This document shows positions 1,035 to 11,091 of a stretch of DNA of 64,000 nt, one piece after another; the first letter of the stretch is position 1; each line of letters begins with the position of its first letter. The stretch is from an uncultured Candidatus Nanopelagicus sp. Its GTDB lineage: Bacteria > Actinomycetota > Actinomycetes > Nanopelagicales > Nanopelagicaceae. Below the pieces are notes generated by a model, which was not told where the DNA came from, did not search any database, and saw nothing but the letters and a program-made list of their open reading frames with translations. The position numbers and the translations under genes are program-made. The stretch lies in NCBI GenBank assembly GCA_964628535.1, contig CAZVNE010000001.1, positions 8,792-72,791 on the forward strand, written 5' to 3'.

Positions 1035-2225
1035 CTAAGCAATAGCTTCTTTAATCCACTCTAGATCTCGAGCTCTGAAGGTATCTAATAGGTAGAAGTC
1101 GATCTCAGTAATATTTAATTGCTTAAGTCGATCTACCTTCTTTATTAAATTATCTTTCTCAGTGCAATCTGGATAGGTTGGGCGCAAGATTGCACTTACC
1201 TTTGTTGAAACAGTTTGCTGGTATGAGCTTGCTAAATCTGCTACCTCTGAATCGGTAGGACGATAAATCAATGGTTCAAAGCAATCAACTACTGCTGCGA
1301 TCTGTTGATTATTGATGCCAATCTCCCAGCTTTTAGCAAGTGAGTTAGTACTTTTAAAATCAATAAGTGGGGATTGATCCTCGTACTTAAACTTAACGCC
1401 AGCTGCATGGGCGATGGCAACAGCTTGGCTATATAGATCTGCTACCGCATCTTCTCGTGCTGACAGGTATTGCAAGATCTCCGGCCCTAAAATTTGTGCT
1501 AAGAACTCCTTGGTCAGTACTTCTCCTAGCCATGGATCTCTATCATCAAAAACTACTTGCAATGATTGCTTAATCTTCTGCGCCAATAAATTAGCATCTC
1601 CAGCAAAGTTTGATTTACATGCCTCACAAAAACATAGTGAAAACAAAAATTCAGTGACGGGGCTTAGCTCCATGAAAAAACGCTCATGGTGTTCACCATG
1701 TCTTGCGCCATGAAAGTGCAGTGACTCAGCCATAATGGCGGTAACGCCCCTGCTTGCTAAATCCTTGGTCATGCCAAGTGCATAACCTTGAACAGCTTTA
1801 TTAATTGGACAAAGCTCAGATAGAAACTTGTTGCCAAAAACATTTGTCACAGTTGCAGATGGGTGGGTCATGCCAATCGCTGAGTTATGCAGATAAACCG
1901 CCCAGGCATTTACCTCAAAATCTTGCTTCGCCGCCTCGGCTAATACATTTTCAAGAAGTTGATTAGATGGCAGTTGATCAAACTCAGCTGGCGTTAATGC
2001 CCCGACTTCATACTTTGAGTTATCAACCTTGTAGTAGTGAAATCCATCAGATAGATACTCAAGTTGTGGACCTTGGCGAAGCAGGAAGTCACGACTTGCG
2101 TGGTAATTTAAAGCAAGATTAATCCCCGATAAACCAGCTGCCTTTAAATCAGTAATTACCTTTGCGGCTGGTTCACGAAAAAATGTGTATGGCAGGGTAA
2201 AAGCGTTTGATTTTACCGAACTCAT
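1035..2225 (-). CDS. Uncharacterised TIM-barrel protein, glycoside-hydrolase-like
   Basis: 396 aa; YH-x-x-R, AWAVYLHN, LCP, AESLHF and LCFCEAC motifs. Last gene of the sugar ABC operon (overlaps permease stop). Confidence 0.6.
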   Translation of the reverse strand: MSSVKSNAFTLPYTFFREPAAKVITDLKAAGLSGINLALNYHASRDFLLRQGPQLEYLSDGFHYYKVDNSKYEVGALTPAEFDQLPSNQLLENVLAEAAKQDFEVNAWAVYLHNSAIGMTHPSATVTNVFGNKFLSELCPINKAVQGYALGMTKDLASRGVTAIMAESLHFHGARHGEHHERFFMELSPVTEFLFSLCFCEACKSNFAGDANLLAQKIKQSLQVVFDDRDPWLGEVLTKEFLAQILGPEILQYLSAREDAVADLYSQAVAIAHAAGVKFKYEDQSPLIDFKSTNSLAKSWEIGINNQQIAAVVDCFEPLIYRPTDSEVADLASSYQQTVSTKVSAILRPTYPDCTEKDNLIKKVDRLKQLNITEIDFYLLDTFRARDLEWIKEAIA

Positions 2226-3052
2226 TTCACGCTGCCGGCGGTTAAGCCACCAACTAAATACTTTTCAATCATGATAAACAAAATTACAACTGGAACAATT
2301 GCAATCATTGTTGTGGCAAAGAGGTACTCCCATGCGGTGTCATAGGCGCCAATAAATGAGGTTAAGCCAACGGTCAGAGGTTTCTTATCAACTGAGCTCA
2401 TAATTGTTAATGCGATTGTGAACTCATTCCAGGCTGCAACAAAGGTAAAGATTGTCGCAGTTACCAAACCTGGCAATGCGATTGGCAGCGTTACCTTGCG
2501 AAGTGCTTGAACGCGAGTGCAGCCATCAATCATCGCCGCCTCTTCAATCTCAACTGGAATACTTGAGAAGAAGCCAGCTAATAACCAGATTCCAAATGCC
2601 AGGTTAAATCCAGCATTCAAAATAATTAAGGCCGAGTAAGTATCCAGAGCGTTAAAGAAATCAACCTCTTTAAAAATACCAATAATTAACGCAGTCGGTG
2701 AAAACATTTGAGTAGCTAGAACCAATAACAAAAATGGCCCTCGGAATTTGAAGCGGTATCTAGAAATAAAGTAAGCCGCTGGAATTGAGACTGCTAAGAC
2801 CAGCAAGGTGGCGGAGATCGAGACGATCAAGCTTGTCTTTACATATCCCCAGATTGGAGCCTCTCGCCAAACCTCGATGTAGTTGCTCCATTTCCAATTC
2901 ACTGGAAAGTGGGTTGTGGGAATAGCATAAATTTCATCTCTAGATTTTAGAGAGGTGAAGAACATATTGAAGTATGGATAGACAAATATCCAGGCAATAA
3001 AGTAGGCACCAGATATCGTCGCTATCTTTTTCGGTGTAATGCCTTTTTTCAT
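2222..3052 (-). CDS. Carbohydrate ABC transporter permease (MalG-like)
   Basis: EEAAMIDGCTR EAA loop; C-terminal GLTAGSVK; 6 TM. Confidence 0.95.
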   Translation of the reverse strand: MKKGITPKKIATISGAYFIAWIFVYPYFNMFFTSLKSRDEIYAIPTTHFPVNWKWSNYIEVWREAPIWGYVKTSLIVSISATLLVLAVSIPAAYFISRYRFKFRGPFLLLVLATQMFSPTALIIGIFKEVDFFNALDTYSALIILNAGFNLAFGIWLLAGFFSSIPVEIEEAAMIDGCTRVQALRKVTLPIALPGLVTATIFTFVAAWNEFTIALTIMSSVDKKPLTVGLTSFIGAYDTAWEYLFATTMIAIVPVVILFIMIEKYLVGGLTAGSVK

Positions 3053-3984
3053 ACTTCTGTCCTTGTCGCCTTAGTTGCCTTTAAATAGAAGCCCACCACA
3101 ATTAAAATCAGTATGAAATTCAATACGCCAAGCGCTGTTGATTGACCCATATTTGATTCAATAAAGGCCAACTTATATGCAAATGTAATTGTGGTATCGG
3201 TGTCGTAACCTGGCCCACCTCTGGTCATTACCCAAATAATTGGGAATGAGTTAAAGACGTTTATCAGGTTAATAATTGTCGCAATTAACAAGGAGTTACG
3301 AAGTAATGGAAACTTAATTTTGCGATAGATCTGCCAAGATGATGCACCATCAACAGATGCGGCCTCCACGATGTCATTTGGAATAGATTGCAGACCAGCT
3401 AGAAGTACAAAGGTGGTAAATGGTATAGATACAAATACCGCTACCCACATCAAGAAGTAAAAGGATGTGCCAGGGTTTCCGATCCAATCCACCGGCTCAT
3501 TTATCAGACCCAATTGAGTCAAGGTTAAATTTAACTCGCCAGAGAAAGCATCCAGGATCCAGGACCAGATCATTGATGTCATAACCACTGAAGCTGCCCA
3601 AGGGAAAATTAAGGCCCAGCGAACAAATCTGCGTCCTGGGAAATTTTGATTAATTAATTGTGCAAGTGGCAAAGAAAGTGCGATTGTAAAGAAGACAATT
3701 CCAAATACCCATAAAAAAGTTCTTCTTAAGACTGGATATAAATCCATATTGGCAAATAAGTCTCGATAATTAGCCAAACCATTAAATTCAAGTAAGCTGC
3801 CAGCTAATGAAATGTCGGTAAATGATGTTCTGACCAAAATAACAACTGGCCAAATTACGACCAGAATAATTAAAAATAGGGCGGGACCAATCCACGGTAG
3901 AGCGCTTACAAATGAGACATTTTGGCTGACCTGAGATTTTTTGGTGCGCTTTGGTTTGGTCTCACTTAGTGTCGCAGTGGCCAA
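3049..3984 (-). CDS. Carbohydrate ABC transporter permease (MalF-like)
   Basis: GLANY, EAASVDGA and TRGGPG motifs; TTG start. Confidence 0.95.
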   Translation of the reverse strand: MATATLSETKPKRTKKSQVSQNVSFVSALPWIGPALFLIILVVIWPVVILVRTSFTDISLAGSLLEFNGLANYRDLFANMDLYPVLRRTFLWVFGIVFFTIALSLPLAQLINQNFPGRRFVRWALIFPWAASVVMTSMIWSWILDAFSGELNLTLTQLGLINEPVDWIGNPGTSFYFLMWVAVFVSIPFTTFVLLAGLQSIPNDIVEAASVDGASSWQIYRKIKFPLLRNSLLIATIINLINVFNSFPIIWVMTRGGPGYDTDTTITFAYKLAFIESNMGQSTALGVLNFILILIVVGFYLKATKATRTEV

Positions 3985-4027
3985 ATTTCATCACCCCTAA
4001 AAAGTTCATTGGAAAGGAATTTTTCAT

Positions 4028-4061
4028 GTAATGAGATCCCCCGGTTAGGGGATCTCATTAC
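4028..4061. terminator. Perfect 14-bp stem-loop between binding-protein and permease genes (mRNA stabiliser or partial terminator)
   Basis: GTAATGAGATCCCC-cggtta-GGGGATCTCATTAC. Confidence 0.75.
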
Positions 4062-4094
4062 CAATCAATTTAAAGTTAAATAAACCTTTCGGTC

Positions 4095-5345
4095 TTACTT
4101 AACTCCAGCAGCAACAGCAGTTCTCTGTATCGAATCTAGAACTGACTTTGCATCCTTAGTGATACCGCCACCGATTTGGGTGGTGATTCTTGCAACTACT
4201 GCTCCCCATGAACCAAGGGTTGCTGGGTAGAAGATAGCGTTGTCTAGCTGCTCAATGAATGGAAGCAATGATGAATCCACCTCAGTTGATGCTGACTTAG
4301 TTGCTGGAATAAATCCACCAGTTGCCTTTAGGAAGGCAGCGTAGTTCTTTGGCTCGTAGATGAAGTTAAGCCACTTTGATACTGCATCCTGGTTACCTGG
4401 CTTCTTAAAGCCCATGAAGTAATCCTGAACACCCAAAGTGATTGGCTTCATTCCTGCTCTTGCAGTTGGGAATGGTGCTACACCGTAATCAACCTTGCTC
4501 TTGTAAATTGTCTTCAAATCTGAAGGGAAAAATACAGAGGCGTTGATCATCGCAACTTTACCTTGAGCAAAAAGTCTAAAGGCATCAGAGCGATTTGTTG
4601 ATGCAGGGTTTGGCTGGGTGTAACCAGCGCGAGTCCATGCCTTCAACTGATTAAGGGTTTGGATATTTTGAGGTGAGTTAATGACCCACTTGTTTGTCTT
4701 CTCATCAAAGTAACGTCCACCATTACCGCCAGCCCAGATTTGGAACTCAGCTTGAGCTTCCTCTGCACCTAGTGGAATAGCTAATGGGAATACTCGTGAG
4801 CCGTACTTAGCTTTGATTCGCTTTGCAGCAGCTGTTACCTCTGCCCAAGTTGTAGGAATCTTTGTATTTCCTGCACCGTAGAACAATGTCTTGTTGATGA
4901 AGAACATACGTGCTGAAGCAAGGTCAGCAACTGCATACTCAACGCCGTTGTACTTTGAGTTATCGCGGAAAGCTGTTGCGAAATCTGAAAGTTTGGCAGC
5001 TGTGAATAGATCACTTGCCTTGTAAAGAAGATCCTCTGCTGCAAACTCAGAGAATGTGTTTAAGTTAAGGATATCTGGGTATGACTTTGTTGAAATTAAG
5101 GTACGTCCCTTAACCAAAATTGCATCCCATTCAAGATTCTCGTGCTCAACCTTGATATTTGGGTTAGCTGCCATGAAACGCTTGTTTAGATCCTCATAGA
5201 ATGCAGGCATCAACGGCGTGTAGTTAGGCGTCATTACCTTGATCGTGATTGTATTTGCTTGCGCTGGTGTAGCTGCAACAAGTGCACCTGCCGCTAACGC
5301 AAATGAAGCCGCAACGGCAACGCTGCGATTTATTAGTTTCTTCAT
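4095..5345 (-). CDS. Sugar ABC transporter substrate-binding protein (family 1)
   Basis: Signal peptide ending AQA; FAQGKVAMI and YGVAPFP motifs; strong RBS AGGAGG. Confidence 0.92.
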   Translation of the reverse strand: MKKLINRSVAVAASFALAAGALVAATPAQANTITIKVMTPNYTPLMPAFYEDLNKRFMAANPNIKVEHENLEWDAILVKGRTLISTKSYPDILNLNTFSEFAAEDLLYKASDLFTAAKLSDFATAFRDNSKYNGVEYAVADLASARMFFINKTLFYGAGNTKIPTTWAEVTAAAKRIKAKYGSRVFPLAIPLGAEEAQAEFQIWAGGNGGRYFDEKTNKWVINSPQNIQTLNQLKAWTRAGYTQPNPASTNRSDAFRLFAQGKVAMINASVFFPSDLKTIYKSKVDYGVAPFPTARAGMKPITLGVQDYFMGFKKPGNQDAVSKWLNFIYEPKNYAAFLKATGGFIPATKSASTEVDSSLLPFIEQLDNAIFYPATLGSWGAVVARITTQIGGGITKDAKSVLDSIQRTAVAAGVK

Positions 5346-5487
5346 TAAGTTATTTCCTCCTAGGATCCCACCCTGTGGTGGGTTGGGCCATACCCCATCA
5401 TTAAATGACCCTTACCAGCAAGGTGGATTTGGGAAAATTAGATAAATTTTTTGGTATCAAAGTTGAAGGCTGAGCATGAAATCTCAC

Positions 5488-7083
5488 TTAGCGAGATCTA
5501 ATAGCCCGGCCTGGAACCGCTTCGGTTCGCTTGCCCCTAAGCAGGGTGGCAATCCCGCCAATCCAGACATTTTCAATACCCGCCGCCGGCAATCTTGGGC
5601 TTTCATAGGTTGAACGATCAAGCACAGTTGTCGCATCCAATAAAACCAGATCTGCTTTTAATCCAGCTTTTACAAAGCCGCGATCTTTTATTCCTAATCT
5701 TTTTGCAGCACGACCACTCATGCGTGCAACCGCTCCTTCGAAGGATAAAACCTTCTCTTCTCTTGCATACACACCAAGGTAACGAGCAAAGGTGCCATAA
5801 CTTCTTGGGTGCGGCCGGTTGCCAGTTAAAATTCCATCGCTACCAATCATGTGTCTGCGATCTTGCATGATGGCACGAACATTTCCTTCATGGCCGGAGA
5901 AGATAATGCAAGAGGCTTTTAACTCCTCATCAGCAATAAAATCTAAGTAAAACTCAGTTACATCTTTATTAACCATCGCAGCGCACTCGATCATTGATTT
6001 ACCAACAAACTTTAAATTGTGATCGTTGCTGATTCCAGCAACGGTAATAGCTGGCCAATTAACAACACCACCCTGATTTCCATCACTGCCTGTGACATTT
6101 AAATCATTGGTTACTCGATCACGATGCTCTTTAATCTTTAGCCGTTTTAGAGTCTCACCATTTCCACCTGCTTGAATCCAAGATGGCAAAAGTGCATGCA
6201 GGTAGGTGGAGCCAGCTAGGTATGGATAGGTATCAAGGGTTACATCTACCCCTTTACCTTCTGCTTTATCCAACATCTCAAATAAGAGATCAGTTTTGTC
6301 ATGAAAATTTGGATGGCTCATGTGGCAGTGGGTTAAGTGCAATGGTGATCTCGATTGTTCTGCAATATCTAAACACTCAGCAACTGCATCTAAGAATTTT
6401 GCTCCGTAGTTGCGGTGGTGAGGCGCGTAATAGCCCCCATACTTTGCGACCACCTTGCATAGTTCGATAATCTCATGATCATCTGCATAAATTGCTGGCA
6501 CATAGGTTAAGCCGGCAGATAATCCAAAGGCACCCTCCTTCATTCCAATTTCAACCAGATGGCACATCTGCTTTAACTCATCAGCATTTGCTGTGCCCTC
6601 CTCATTGCCGCGAACTAGCATTCGCAAAGTTCCATGTGGAATTAAATAAGCAACATTAACTGCAGCGCCGGCATCGACTCTGGCTAAGTACTGAGCAACA
6701 GAGTGAAAATCCCATTTGAAACCATCAGGATCACCATTCCAACCAAATAACTGGCTGCGTAACTGTTGCAATGTTTCGGGATTACTTGGCACATATGACA
6801 AACCATCTTGGCCCAATACCTCTGTTGTAACTCCTTGAGTTACCTTGGCTAAATGTTGTGGATCTGTAATTACCGCAAGATCTGAGTGCGCATGCATATC
6901 GATAAAGCCTGGCGTAATTGTTAAGCCAGAGCCATCAATAATCTTTCCTTGCTCTTCACCCTTAAGTATTGAACCTACCTTTGCAATATAGCCATCAACT
7001 ATTAAGAGATCATCTCTAGTTGCCGGCTTATCCGTGCCATCAATAACTTCTGCGCCACGGATAGTAAAGGTATTTTCAGCCAT
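5488..7083 (-). CDS. N-acyl-D-amino-acid deacylase family amidohydrolase
   Basis: PGFIDMHAHSD, QGVTTEVLGQDG, DTYPYLAGST and HPRSYGTF motifs. Confidence 0.92.
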   Translation of the reverse strand: MAENTFTIRGAEVIDGTDKPATRDDLLIVDGYIAKVGSILKGEEQGKIIDGSGLTITPGFIDMHAHSDLAVITDPQHLAKVTQGVTTEVLGQDGLSYVPSNPETLQQLRSQLFGWNGDPDGFKWDFHSVAQYLARVDAGAAVNVAYLIPHGTLRMLVRGNEEGTANADELKQMCHLVEIGMKEGAFGLSAGLTYVPAIYADDHEIIELCKVVAKYGGYYAPHHRNYGAKFLDAVAECLDIAEQSRSPLHLTHCHMSHPNFHDKTDLLFEMLDKAEGKGVDVTLDTYPYLAGSTYLHALLPSWIQAGGNGETLKRLKIKEHRDRVTNDLNVTGSDGNQGGVVNWPAITVAGISNDHNLKFVGKSMIECAAMVNKDVTEFYLDFIADEELKASCIIFSGHEGNVRAIMQDRRHMIGSDGILTGNRPHPRSYGTFARYLGVYAREEKVLSFEGAVARMSGRAAKRLGIKDRGFVKAGLKADLVLLDATTVLDRSTYESPRLPAAGIENVWIGGIATLLRGKRTEAVPGRAIRSR

Positions 7084-7088
7084 TTAAA

Positions 7089-7886
7089 TTAATCAGAGCC
7101 CTCAACGATTTTATACATCGGCGCCATGCCAGCAAGTAGGCCACCATCAACAACCATCTCGCTGCCACTCATCCACTCAGATTTATCAGAGAGTAAAAAT
7201 ATAACCGCTTCTGAAATATCCTTTGGCTTTCCAACGCGACCTAGTGGGTACCAAGGCTTTAGATTTTCAAAGATTGTTGGATTGCGATCAACCCGTGATT
7301 GCCATGCATCAGTTGCAATAGTGCCGGGAACAACTGTGTTACAGCGAATGCCGTGTGGACCATAGCGAACTGCAACTGTGCGAGTTAATGCATGTAGGCC
7401 AGCTTTAGCAACACTGTAAGAGTCACTGCCCACCATTGTTTTGGCATTTACTGTGCCGATATTGATGATATTTCCAGCTTTGCGCTTCATCATCTCTGGC
7501 AGTACCGCACGAATTGTTAAGAAGCTGCCAGTTAAAGTAATTGAAAGAGAGCGGTTCCAACTATCAAGTGAGGTCTTAACTAAATCCTCTGCCTCATGAA
7601 CCATGGCGTTATTTACTAAACAATCAATTTTGCCAAAATCCTTTTCAATTGCCTTAAAGTTTTCAATTACCTGCGCCTCATTGCCAAGATCGGTGTGGTA
7701 ACCACGAACCTCTGCACCAGTTGCGGCGATCTCCTTAACCGTTGCATCGAGATTCTCTTTGATAACCTCAACTAAGGCTAAGCGAGCGCCATGTGCTGCA
7801 GCATCAATCGCCATCTCTTTTCCAATGCCACGGCCGGAGCCGGTGATAACAACTACCTTGCCAGCGAGGCTTTGTTCGACGCTCAT
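7089..7886 (-). CDS. Short-chain dehydrogenase/reductase
   Basis: TGSGRGIG, VNNA and catalytic YSVAK. Confidence 0.93.
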   Translation of the reverse strand: MSVEQSLAGKVVVITGSGRGIGKEMAIDAAAHGARLALVEVIKENLDATVKEIAATGAEVRGYHTDLGNEAQVIENFKAIEKDFGKIDCLVNNAMVHEAEDLVKTSLDSWNRSLSITLTGSFLTIRAVLPEMMKRKAGNIINIGTVNAKTMVGSDSYSVAKAGLHALTRTVAVRYGPHGIRCNTVVPGTIATDAWQSRVDRNPTIFENLKPWYPLGRVGKPKDISEAVIFLLSDKSEWMSGSEMVVDGGLLAGMAPMYKIVEGSD

Positions 7887-7888
7887 CT

Positions 7889-8266
7889 TTATAGCGCCAC
7901 TACAAAATCAATTTCAACCAAGATGTTGATTAGATCTGAACCAACTGTTGTACGCACTGGAAATGGTGCTGAGAAAAACTCGCGATAAACCTCATCATAT
8001 GCTTTGAAGTCGCGATTAACATCTTGCAGGTGTGCAGTAACTTTTACGACATCTTCAAACTTTGCACCCTTTACATCAAGGATCTTTTGCAGATTCTTCA
8101 GAGTCTGACGGGTTTGCTCAGCTACGCCACCATCAACAATTTTTCCCGTTGCTGGATCAACTGGACCCATGCCGCATGTGTAAAGAAAGCCATTGGCTAC
8201 GACACCGTGTGAGTATGAACCACCTGGTGCTGGTGCATCTTTAGCTTGGATATGTTCGACCTTCAT
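7889..8266 (-). CDS. RidA/YjgF family enamine/imine deaminase
   Basis: GSYSHGV, FPVRTTVG (catalytic Arg) and VEID. Confidence 0.93.
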   Translation of the reverse strand: MKVEHIQAKDAPAPGGSYSHGVVANGFLYTCGMGPVDPATGKIVDGGVAEQTRQTLKNLQKILDVKGAKFEDVVKVTAHLQDVNRDFKAYDEVYREFFSAPFPVRTTVGSDLINILVEIDFVVAL

Positions 8267-8290
8267 GGTTCTCTCCTTAGGTTGGGTTTT

Positions 8291-9514
8291 TTAAAAAAAG
8301 GTATGAATACAATCTACAACATCATAATTGTCATTGACTAATGGAATCAACCGCCACTTATCAAAGGTGGTACAAGGGTGGGATATGCCTAAACCGATCA
8401 AATCACCAACTGCAAATTTATCTGAACTTCGCATAAATCCATGCTGATCATTTAATTTTTCGATTTTGCCAGTAAATTTCTCAACCTTGCCTTGGTACTT
8501 AGCAATTGGCATTGGATTGTGCAGATCACAACCAATATCTCGTTTTCCTAAATTCAAAACACCAAAATCAGATTCCGGAGCGCTTAATAATTGGCTCCAA
8601 ACCTCTATCGCTGGCAACAAGGGATCGCCTGTGCTCTTCGCTGGATAAACCTCTTCATAATAAATATGGTCATGAGTTACATAGCCACCACTGCGAAGTA
8701 AGAGCATTCTTGGTTTACTAAACTTACCTAACTCCTCAGCTACGATCTCAAAGTAGGCACTTCCTCCGGCACTGACAATAAATAGATCATCAGATTTAAA
8801 CTCGTAAGCAACCTCACCAGCTGCGACAATTTTTTTACAGAACTCATGCACAGCGCTCTCACCTGTAGCGCTTCTGGCGGCTGTTGGAACTGCACCTTCA
8901 AAGCCAGTAACGCCTCGCAGATTTAATCTTGCATCTGCTTTAATCTCCTGCGCAATACTTTTTACTAAAGCTAGATCGCGAACGCCACCTCTACCATTAT
9001 CGGTGCCGATTTCAATAAAGAGATTTACCTTGCCATCTGCCGGCGTAGCAGCTTTAACAAGCTCTAAACCAGCCAATGAATCAACATAGAAAATAATCTC
9101 AGCTTTATTCCTCTTATTTAAACGGGCAATCTTTGCAATTGCACTGCTCTCTAAAACCTCATTTGCAATTATTAATCTTTTGAAGCCAAATTTACGAAAG
9201 ATCTCTGCCTGCCAAAAGTTTGCAATAGTCAGCGCCCAAGCACCAGCATCTATCTGCATCTGCGCAATTTGTGGTGACATTGTGGTTTTTACATGGGGTG
9301 CTAACTCCGCGCCCACTGATTTACAGTACTTTGCCATCACATCAATATTGTTTTTTAGGGCACTCTCTTTGAGTACCATCATTGGAAATTGAAAATCAGC
9401 TTGAAATAGGTTGGGCTTTGATTTGAGAAACTTCTTAATGCTTTTGCCGTGAGAAGCTAGTGGAAAATTCTTTTGAGTTTCATCGATCTTTACCTGATCT
9501 AGCTTTACCTTCAT
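8291..9514 (-). CDS. Fold-type III PLP enzyme, D-serine dehydratase / amino-acid deaminase family
   Basis: LAPHVKT PLP-lysine motif; GFEG, SAGGS, RSGGYVTHD, LNDQH and SHPCTTFDKW motifs. Confidence 0.88.
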   Translation of the reverse strand: MKVKLDQVKIDETQKNFPLASHGKSIKKFLKSKPNLFQADFQFPMMVLKESALKNNIDVMAKYCKSVGAELAPHVKTTMSPQIAQMQIDAGAWALTIANFWQAEIFRKFGFKRLIIANEVLESSAIAKIARLNKRNKAEIIFYVDSLAGLELVKAATPADGKVNLFIEIGTDNGRGGVRDLALVKSIAQEIKADARLNLRGVTGFEGAVPTAARSATGESAVHEFCKKIVAAGEVAYEFKSDDLFIVSAGGSAYFEIVAEELGKFSKPRMLLLRSGGYVTHDHIYYEEVYPAKSTGDPLLPAIEVWSQLLSAPESDFGVLNLGKRDIGCDLHNPMPIAKYQGKVEKFTGKIEKLNDQHGFMRSSDKFAVGDLIGLGISHPCTTFDKWRLIPLVNDNYDVVDCIHTFF

Positions 9515-9516
9515 AT

Positions 9517-10206
9517 TTACTCCCGACCATATTTAGCGATGAACTCATCCAAAATACTAGCGGTTGATGATGAACCGCTGCGATCGATTCCGGCATCTAA
9601 GAATTCAAGCAATTGGTCTAAAGATTTCACACCACCTGCGCTCTTAACCTTTACCTTTGGGCTGCAGGTGGCGCGCATTAACTTAACATCGGCCAAGGTG
9701 GCACCAGTTGGTGCAAATCCAGTAGAAGTTTTTACATAATCCGCTCCTGCTGCCTCAACTAATTTACATGCGGTGATCTTCTCTTCATCAGTTAAGTAAG
9801 CATTCTCAAGAATTACCTTTACCTGCTTGCCGGCAGCTGCAACAACGACGGCGGCGATCTCATCCTGAACCGCTTTGGTTTTTCCAGATTTAAGGTGGCC
9901 AATATTGATTACTACATCTATTTCTACCGCACCATTAGCGATCGCCTCTTTTGTTTCAAATACCTTTGACGCAGTTGTTGATGAACCGTGTGGAAAGCCA
10001 ACCACTGTTCCAACCAAAACATTACTGCCCTTTAAAATATCGGCAACAAATTTCACATCAGCTGGCTTGCAACAAACCGATGCAACATCATATTTAAGTG
10101 CAACCTCACAACCCGCTTCAACCTCATCTAGTGTCATGGCTGGTCCCAATGTTGAGTGATCAATTGTCTTTGCAACTTTTTTTAAAGAGTATTTAGGATG
10201 TGACAT
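9517..10206 (-). CDS. deoC: Deoxyribose-phosphate aldolase family class I aldolase
   Basis: IDHSTL, VGFPHG, KVILE, YVKTSTGF and VKSAGG motifs. Confidence 0.9.
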   Translation of the reverse strand: MSHPKYSLKKVAKTIDHSTLGPAMTLDEVEAGCEVALKYDVASVCCKPADVKFVADILKGSNVLVGTVVGFPHGSSTTASKVFETKEAIANGAVEIDVVINIGHLKSGKTKAVQDEIAAVVVAAAGKQVKVILENAYLTDEEKITACKLVEAAGADYVKTSTGFAPTGATLADVKLMRATCSPKVKVKSAGGVKSLDQLLEFLDAGIDRSGSSSTASILDEFIAKYGRE

Positions 10207-10218
10207 GAGTGAAAGGTA

Positions 10219-11091
10219 TCAAACCTCTCTAGATAGATAAGCCAGCCCAGTTGCCACTACCGCTATACCCAGCCAGCCTTGAAAAGTAATTGCTTCATTT
10301 AAAACCACCGCTGCCAAAATAGTTGCAGTGGCAGGCTCTGCCAAAATCAAGGTAGAGGCCACGCTGGGCTTAATTCCAGTTAAACCCTTTGCATAGAGAA
10401 TATAAGCCAAAGCGGTAGGAACGAGTGCAAGCCAAGCAATCATCGCTGCACCATCAACGGTAGCAAGCCAGGAGAATCCAGAGAGCAGTAAAACTGGAAG
10501 TGAAAGTAAGGCAGCTAAGAGAAATATTTTATAAATTGCATAGGTGGAATCAACGCCGGCAATTAATGCGCGTTTACTAGAAACTGCTAGTAGCGCAAAG
10601 GAGGCGCCAGCAATTATCGCCAAGATAAATCCAAATAAATCAAAATCAGCTACACCATTTGCAGTTCCTAAAATAATTATTCCTACCGTTGTAATAATGG
10701 TTGCACTAAACCATCTTCTGCTTGGCCGCTCTTTATAAATTAGATAATCCAATACACCGGTCAGCGCCGGTACAGAACCAAGTGCGGTGATAGTTCCAAT
10801 TGCTACTCCTGTTTGTTTTACCGCAGAGAAAAAGGTTAATTGATAAGCCAAAATTCCAATTGCAGCCAACCACATATTTAACTTTGGCATTGGGATTGAG
10901 ATTGTTTTACTTAACTTGATATATAAAAATAGTAAGAATGCGCCAAGGATTAAGCGAGCGCTACCAATTGAAAGTGATGAGATTCCTTCTGGTCCAAGTG
11001 CTTGCGTTGTACCAGTGGTGCCAAAGCAAATACCAGCGGCTATTACCAGCAGGTAGTTTCGCCTCACATTGTGAGATTCCACTCGACTCAT
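10219..11091 (-). CDS. EamA/DMT family transporter
   Basis: 10-TM pattern; FGTTGT and LAEP motifs. Confidence 0.88.
   Translation of the reverse strand: MSRVESHNVRRNYLLVIAAGICFGTTGTTQALGPEGISSLSIGSARLILGAFLLFLYIKLSKTISIPMPKLNMWLAAIGILAYQLTFFSAVKQTGVAIGTITALGSVPALTGVLDYLIYKERPSRRWFSATIITTVGIIILGTANGVADFDLFGFILAIIAGASFALLAVSSKRALIAGVDSTYAIYKIFLLAALLSLPVLLLSGFSWLATVDGAAMIAWLALVPTALAYILYAKGLTGIKPSVASTLILAEPATATILAAVVLNEAITFQGWLGIAVVATGLAYLSREV

Follow-up and report, generated by a model that had tools for sequence, protein, structure and literature searches.

A candidate intracellular Ong-like pathway for N-acylated amino sugars in a Candidatus Nanopelagicus genome

Introduction

The gene cluster described here lies on the minus strand of a 64,000-nucleotide stretch (the window, to which positions given without a locus name refer) of contig CAZVNE010000001.1 from an uncultured Candidatus Nanopelagicus sp., and encodes a deacylase, a deaminase and other enzymes together with a sugar importer. 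Its closest described counterpart is the Ong cluster of Pseudoalteromonas prydzensis ACAM 620 (Jiang 2022, PMC9537276; Wang 2025, PMC12017989). In that pathway, OngB, an enzyme of D-aminoacylase fold, deacetylates N-acetylglucosaminate (GlcNAc1A); OngC, a fold-III pyridoxal phosphate (PLP) enzyme that also deaminates D-Ser and D-Thr, converts the product to 2-keto-3-deoxygluconate (KDG); and OngD, a RidA protein, is essential in vivo (PMC9537276). No phosphorylation precedes these steps, which are followed by KdgK and the aldolase for 2-keto-3-deoxy-6-phosphogluconate (KDPG). The acid is made by lytic polysaccharide monooxygenases (LPMOs) and enters through an SSS-family importer, and the cluster, known almost only from Gammaproteobacteria, also encodes the glycoside hydrolase (GH) family 20 enzyme OngA and an RpiR regulator. 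A second point of reference is the 'cluster B' D-acylases (Gox1177, Sco4986 and a Microbacterium enzyme), in which the metal-bridging Cys is missing; they have been assayed on N-acyl-D-amino acids only, and other activities are suspected for this type (PMC12149444).

The source genome (1.1 Mb, 43% GC, 86% complete) groups with relatives at 87–91% identity that are labelled Ca. Nanopelagicus, in the acI actinobacteria, a dominant group of the lake plankton that takes up amino sugars. Uptake of N-acetylglucosamine (GlcNAc) by acI has been reported (PMC3526179, PMC5574706), and amino-sugar uptake was not recovered by metabolic reconstructions (PMC5574706). We propose, with a probability of about 0.62, that the cluster encodes an intracellular Ong-like pathway, whose substrates we infer throughout. 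Its core chemistry is that of the published Ong pathway, which had been overlooked in the original prediction of an oxidative amino-sugar route at this locus; new here are the proposed entry through a short-chain dehydrogenase/reductase (SDR), the Cys-less deacylase, the exchange of the PLP enzyme for an enolase-family protein in some relatives and the family of an unnamed barrel protein. The module would give acI a concrete candidate importer, together with an oxidative route from which carbon, ammonia and NADH could be drawn, would extend Ong-type chemistry beyond LPMO products and Gammaproteobacteria, and would suggest a physiological substrate class for the Cys-less D-acylases and a testable function for the barrel family; related loci occur in the culturable Haloferax volcanii, Streptomyces and Rhizobium. 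Throughout, absence means 'not found with the query used'; many of the counted loci are kin, and the counts are descriptive, not independent. The unpublished genomes G050, G059 and G299 were left out of the basis for any claim.

An Ong-type enzyme set beside a sugar importer

All nine predicted open reading frames (ORFs), running from 10206 to 1035, were recovered on the minus strand with the same boundaries. The families named for them were likewise confirmed: DeoC, D-ser_dehydrat with Ala_racemase_N, Ribonuc_L-PSP, adh_short, Amidohydro_3, SBP_bac_1 and two BPD_transp_1 proteins. Three of these products, a deacylase of D-aminoacylase fold (5488..7083), a fold-III PLP ammonia-lyase resembling OngC and D-serine deaminases (8291..9514) and an OngD-like enamine/imine deaminase of RidA type (7889..8266), make up the Ong enzyme set. 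The idea that a 2-amino-aldonate is first deacylated and then deaminated has therefore held up: it matches the published OngB/OngC/OngD route (PMC9537276), and in relatives the genes adjoin nagA/nagK/nagB-II, kdgK/eda or GH20 genes. The PLP enzyme has 3GWQ as its best structure match (E 3e-53) and an intact PLP lysine (K76) and His-x-Cys zinc motif (H379, C381), and R105 is retained in RidA. The deacylase matches OngB with an E value of 2e-55, and Alcaligenes D-aminoacylase better. It retains H222, H252 and D416 of the metal site, with Asp93 in place of the bridging Cys97 of OngB. It is a homologue of OngB, of the long Cys-less type, and not an OngB member; judged by these residues, it could work in an OngB-like manner without having GlcNAc1A as its substrate. 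It shares the missing Cys with the cluster B enzymes, to which we liken it through Streptomyces-type orthologs (44–48% identical, with a GQDG motif in common) and not through Sco4986 itself.

The cluster in the window differs from the Ong cluster in having a CUT1 importer, a cytoplasmic SDR, the unnamed barrel, no regulator, a Cys-less deacylase and unlinked kdgK and eda genes; GH20 was not found in the source genome as far as it is complete (86%). The importer consists of a sugar-binding protein (4095..5345) and MalF-like (3049..3984) and MalG-like (2222..3052) permeases; no ATPase is encoded in the cluster, and an MsiK-like ATPase gene lies elsewhere on the contig. Although it carries a signal peptide, the binding protein contains no cysteine and thus no lipobox or lipid anchor, which is unusual for a monoderm actinobacterium; the binding protein of locus L080 is alike. 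The SDR (7089..7886) is nearest to PRK07074 (230 bits, below the cut-off of 361) and 5TT0, both uncharacterised. Its Glu40 suggests the use of NAD. From its context, it is plausibly a cytoplasmic NAD-dependent N-acylhexosamine 1-dehydrogenase that makes the aldonate from a neutral sugar; no characterised enzyme of this activity (EC 1.1.1.240) is among its PDB or NCBIfam matches. An SDR with the same [ST]VN...YxxxK pattern occurs within 8 kb of the barrel gene in 26 of 54 barrel loci; the SDR tree was built in a quick version only.

In the proposed pathway, the CUT1 importer would bring in a neutral N-acyl-2-amino sugar, free or as a small glycoside, and the NAD-type SDR would oxidise C1 to give a lactone, which the barrel might open, unless it serves to free the monomer. 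The resulting N-acyl-aldosaminate is formally an N-acyl-D-amino acid, from which the deacylase would strip the acyl group as OngB does from its own substrate. The PLP enzyme would then beta-eliminate at C3, as is known of OngC, and RidA would hydrolyse the enamine to ammonia and a 2-keto-3-deoxy acid, to be passed to KdgK and Eda, whose genes lie on a different contig. DeoC would stand outside the pathway. Since D-amino-acid-type enzymes should demand a D-configured C2, gluco- and galacto-type sugars fit on stereochemical reasoning and D-ManNAc does not.

Conservation of the module

The expectation that the genes co-occur elsewhere was borne out. A close deacylase ortholog is present in 41 of 251 family genomes, from seven genera, and in the loci examined it is almost always accompanied by the same partners; the conserved set comprises the PLP enzyme, RidA, SDR, deacylase, binding protein, two permeases and barrel, and its clustering is not due to chance. 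Next to this set, nagB-II, a BadF-type kinase gene and nagA are met most often, and in Planktophila-type and some Nanopelagicus loci the cluster borders on nagB-II/nagK/nagA. Streptomyces-type deacylase orthologs come with kdgK, mostly also with IclR and RidA genes; a Tsukamurella locus carries kdgK, eda and a gluconate symporter gene; GH20, ROK and nagB are present in G142; and contig L152 combines the deacylase and PLP enzyme with a PfkB-RidA fusion and a GH20-barrel fusion. Barrel and SDR genes are also found with the deacylase and homologous permeases in the alphaproteobacterium Ciceribacter and with GH88 and kduD on a Burkholderia plasmid, and other acI carry a paralogous barrel-SDR pair in a second operon.

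One exchange concerns the PLP enzyme. Its gene is missing in all five loci of genus g348, where an enolase-family gene is found instead, and four of the five genomes have no PLP match. In Haloferax, enolase-family, creatininase-family and RidA genes likewise occur together: H. volcanii and H. mediterranei keep the order binding protein-permease-permease-barrel, after which come an enolase-family gene, the SDR, RidA and eda, with kdgK in addition in H. mediterranei. Dehydration followed by deacylation and RidA action would reach the same keto acid, and the swap thus favours sugar-acid chemistry over plain salvage of D-amino acids. The H. volcanii locus on pHV4 (HVO_RS03090-03140; L169:2790-12434) is a complete archaeal analogue of the module, in a species amenable to genetic work, and we found no paper on it.

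Genes resembling those for uronate isomerase and mannonate/fructuronate reductase lie next to the nag genes by the cluster (L049:18176-21191; L189-L193), a hint of mixed substrates containing hexuronate and N-acetylhexosamine. Contigs L040 and L057 bear the labels Bifidobacterium breve and Saprospiraceae but contain acI-like sequence, and are probably mislabelled or misbinned.

Evidence on the substrate

Several observations weigh against the proposed pathway. The binding protein has no close relative with a bound ligand. In a residue map drawn through an AfDam alignment and published numbering, and not on the OngB sequence itself, the deacylase departs from OngB not only at Cys97 but also at Glu226, Lys254, Ser290 and Ser292, which correspond to Tyr226, His254, Gly291 and Thr293; the position of OngB Gln298 is Leu by counting, but the insertion domain of the deacylase is longer and unaligned. 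Its G-S-T at 291-293 is D-aminoacylase-like, and Cys-less Streptomyces enzymes have D-acylase activity in vitro (PMC12149444). The module is also incomplete in places: in G033, only eamA-deoC-PLP-RidA is left at the locus, and in G032, the SDR and transporter are missing from it. Finally, the KdgK-like kinase of the source genome scores below every KdgK cut-off.

Some of these points would be expected if the deacylase, deaminase and RidA salvaged N-acyl-D-amino acids or D-serine and D-threonine, the transporter, SDR and barrel being a separate sugar module. The G-S-T motif, the survival of PLP-RidA alone in G033, the action of OngC on D-Ser and D-Thr (PMC9537276) and the often convergent orientation of the two blocks all agree with such salvage. 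Against it, in acI the SDR is always part of the enzyme block, the barrel is known in fusions with amidohydrolases, and kdgK, eda and nag neighbours recur across phyla; we consider it unlikely.

With the Ong-like pathway retained, its sugar may not be GlcNAc, because the deacylase has lost the bridging Cys and most of the sugar-binding residues of OngB. The full phosphorylative GlcNAc set next door, together with these altered contacts, hints at a different sugar, for instance N-acetylgalactosamine or N-acetylmuramic acid (MurNAc). In the MurNAc version, wall debris would be the source and the PLP step would expel D-lactate independently of MurQ. It is in line with this that no MurQ above cut-off was found in five cluster-bearing genomes, that the deacylase is unlike OngB at the C3/C4 contacts and that Cwp19 is the top fold match of the barrel. 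In addition, an SDR of the same type is encoded in Halosolutus (L179:1-13681) with two proteins of DUF1343, the NamZ muramidase family, a GH3 enzyme, a lactonase, an enolase-family protein and RidA, a set that is possibly an oxidative peptidoglycan-sugar route in an archaeon. Yet this is a single archaeal locus, and none of the acI loci or genomes tested gave a muramidase, GH3 or GH20 gene, which leaves the use of MurNAc quite unlikely.

DeoC and the fate of the keto acid

The original prediction held that the route is kinase-free, with the operon's DeoC (9517..10206) splitting an unphosphorylated 2-keto-3-deoxy-aldonate, and that kinase, NagA/NagB and KDPG aldolase genes are absent. The absence holds for the operon but fails for the genome: on contig C4, a KDG-kinase-like PfkB gene abuts eda, whose product passes TIGR01182, and nagA and nagB-II lie about 105 kb along the window's contig. 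Eda is present in 28 of 38 genus genomes and in all five near-complete family genomes tested. The operon's aldolase matched only PF01791 and TIGR00126, with no Eda- or NAL-type match; it passes the latter, the deoxyribose-5-phosphate aldolase (DERA) equivalog, with 232 bits against a cut-off of 117, and in the DERA alignment it retains both lysines (K159, K188) and the GG and SS phosphate-site motifs, which we take to have the roles known from DERA. The donor in the DERA reaction is an aldehyde, not pyruvate.

Comparison of neighbourhoods for kdgK or eda as against deoC, suggested earlier as a check, also turned against DeoC. Orthologs across phyla lie by kdgK or eda, and kdgK is an immediate neighbour in each of the nine loci of Streptomyces and Rhodococcus type that were examined, although no kdgK was found in the window cluster or 20 family loci; deoC was found in none of 20 further family loci and thus falls outside the conserved module. 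In the genus, deoC is rare (8 of 38 genomes), and several cluster-bearing Nanopelagicus have no deoC match. Elsewhere in the genus its home is an SDR-deoC-ROK kinase-GntR-SIS-ABC transporter module (G006, G018, G019, G027). In G006, that module and the PLP gene share a contig and strand, the module lying 13 kb upstream; in G018 and G027, no PLP ortholog was found; and in G019, eamA-PLP-RidA stands before the SDR gene of the module. The site is unstable across Nanopelagicus, and on the simplest reading deoC came to adjoin the PLP gene through a deletion in this lineage, DeoC probably being a bystander left over from the module. Kinase-free cleavage is thus not supported, and the route is probably not kinase-free.

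There is still a small chance of a functional link, since deoC is kept with PLP-RidA in G014, G032 and G033. This retention, the 2-bp distance to the PLP gene, the order in G019 and the rarity of deoC otherwise in the genus speak for the earlier model; the DERA signature with its phosphate site, the aldehyde donor, the usual home of deoC, its absence from the further loci, its separation from the PLP gene in G006, G018 and G027 and the frequency of Eda speak against it, and we rate it the least likely of the alternatives weighed here. A link by decarboxylation of KDPG to deoxyribose-5-phosphate was dropped, with no decarboxylase at any locus seen. DeoC is like DERA in its equivalog match, catalytic lysines and phosphate motifs, and thymidine and purine nucleoside phosphorylase families are present in the genome; its native neighbours here are a ROK kinase and a SIS protein, so that its physiological sugar phosphate may differ from deoxyribose-5-phosphate. 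The module itself, SDR-deoC-ROK-GntR-SIS (PRK02947)-CUT2 ABC-Gfo/Idh/MocA-AP_endonuc_2, is uncharacterised and occurs in several Nanopelagicus (L080:4308-15136; L081; L082).

A truly kinase-free exit could exist in G010, G021, G036 and G656, where a gene of the dihydrodipicolinate synthase (DHDPS) family directly follows the barrel gene (L038:8643-9539); its product is nearest to L-2-keto-3-deoxyarabonate dehydratase and keeps the Gln, Lys and Glu motifs. The source genome has a 60% ortholog of it on contig C45 (L077:1416-2327), beside aldose epimerase and PfkB genes. Contig C4 (L031:9952-17111) carries a separate oxidative sugar operon, with binding-protein, permease, SMP-30 lactonase, kdgK-like, eda and two SDR genes.

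The barrel family

The last gene of the cluster (1035..2225) encodes a 396-residue (beta/alpha)8 barrel of a family known by the automatic name 'alanine-rich protein', with 614 clusters at 50% identity (E up to 1e-10). It has no Pfam family match, and a single-sequence PDB search gave nothing. Its predicted model (predicted local distance difference test, pLDDT, 96.6) resembles Cwp19 (Z 25.9, root mean square deviation 3.4 over 300 residues) and PgaB/BpsB (Z 23.4), at 11–13% identity. GHL10 was matched by 17 of 111 homologues at E up to 0.01, and the window barrel does not match PF02638. The GH-like fold is thus common to the barrel, GHL10/Cwp19 and the PgaB C-terminal (GH153) hydrolases, but the barrel differs in its invariant His set and in having no signal peptide, and after strand 4 the alignment pairs its Glu-Ser with the Asp-Asp of Cwp19. 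Invariant or nearly so are Y41, H42, W108, H113, E167, H176, H179, H180, E181, R257 and four Cys, forming in part a His-rich motif. In a check for clan GH-A by alignment and DSSP, made without the model coordinates, E167 was invariant and no conserved Glu was seen at strand 7.

A sister clade, in which the N-terminal residues are kept and the C-terminal half is different, lies directly by kdgD and Udh-like genes at eight actinobacterial loci, and at one of them (L133) the barrel is encoded together with Udh, KdgD, a glucarate-dehydratase-like enolase and an aldehyde dehydrogenase. This gene set recalls the oxidative hexuronate pathway (Udh, lactonase, aldarate dehydratase, KdgD). The known lactonases of that pathway have other folds. 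No lactonase of known fold was detected in the kdgD-barrel loci; with a single query per family, none of 54 barrel loci matched the SMP-30 or Halosolutus lactonase, and two contained PTE-family genes, possible lactonases. Two SDR loci without a barrel (L179, L191) do contain such a lactonase. Lactone hydrolysis is the step that both pathways need and lack, and on this ground a lactonase is our leading assignment, held at somewhat under even odds; a glycosidase comes close behind it, and an epimerase, dehydratase or mutarotase is rather doubtful. Four genomes (G655, G688, G807 and G630) have lost the barrel ortholog, and the three loci examined retain importer and enzymes; G655 has no GH3 or GH20 match. 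Such loss is easier to reconcile with an enzyme that accelerates a spontaneous reaction than with a glycosidase that the route cannot do without, with the caveat that a barrel paralog could substitute.

A glycosidase role would be central if the cell imported oxidised chito-oligomers (GlcNAc-GlcNAc1A) made by other microbes, and an OngA-like barrel fed GlcNAc to NagK/NagA/NagB and GlcNAc1A to the deacylase. The GH fold, the lack of GH3 and GH20 matches in five genomes and the nagB-II/nagK/nagA genes by the cluster in many relatives would suit this scheme. It leaves the conserved SDR without a role, however, and the barrel is fused to GH20 in L152 and lost in four genomes that keep all else; we judge it very unlikely. 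For the Ong-like pathway with SDR entry, the widest claim would be that the barrel is the first of a widespread family of metal-dependent sugar-lactone hydrolases on a GH fold, serving SDR-initiated N-acylhexosamine oxidation in acI, other Actinomycetota, Rhizobiales and haloarchaea, with a PLP lyase or an enolase-family dehydratase, as well as actinobacterial uronate oxidation. We put this forward as a speculative and, on balance, doubtful extension.

The Streptomyces-type kdgD-barrel pairs (L123-L133) are divergent from the Udh-like gene, and in most of these loci no aldarate dehydratase was detected; their barrel might do more than hydrolysis. In G006, the barrel gene is broken into two ORFs (L063:10001-11196). 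A literature search on SCO4986-4990, on uronate lactonases of Streptomyces and on guessed locus tags of Haloferax turned up no paper dealing with this module.

Organization of the locus

The tight spacing noted originally applies to most gaps (-4 to 24 bp) but not to the two that flank the gene for the binding protein, of 142 bp (towards the deacylase) and 110 bp (towards the permease). A 15-bp hairpin 3' of that gene (4028..4061, minus strand; z -4.2 for the intergenic region) is probably a transcript stabiliser or attenuator. A promoter and terminator scan gave 14 hits against 23 expected, at or below chance, and does not set the operon borders. In most relatives, the enzyme block and the binding protein-permease-barrel block are convergent, which makes two transcription units likely, and the order in the window may have arisen when the two were brought into line. 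Composition gives no support for horizontal transfer (operon GC 0.429, genome 0.433). A tenth co-oriented gene, missed originally, encodes an EamA-family drug/metabolite transporter (10219..11091) and lies 12 bp upstream of deoC; eamA is also found beside the deoC-ROK module in G027 and beside PLP-RidA in G019, and is a resident of this variable site.

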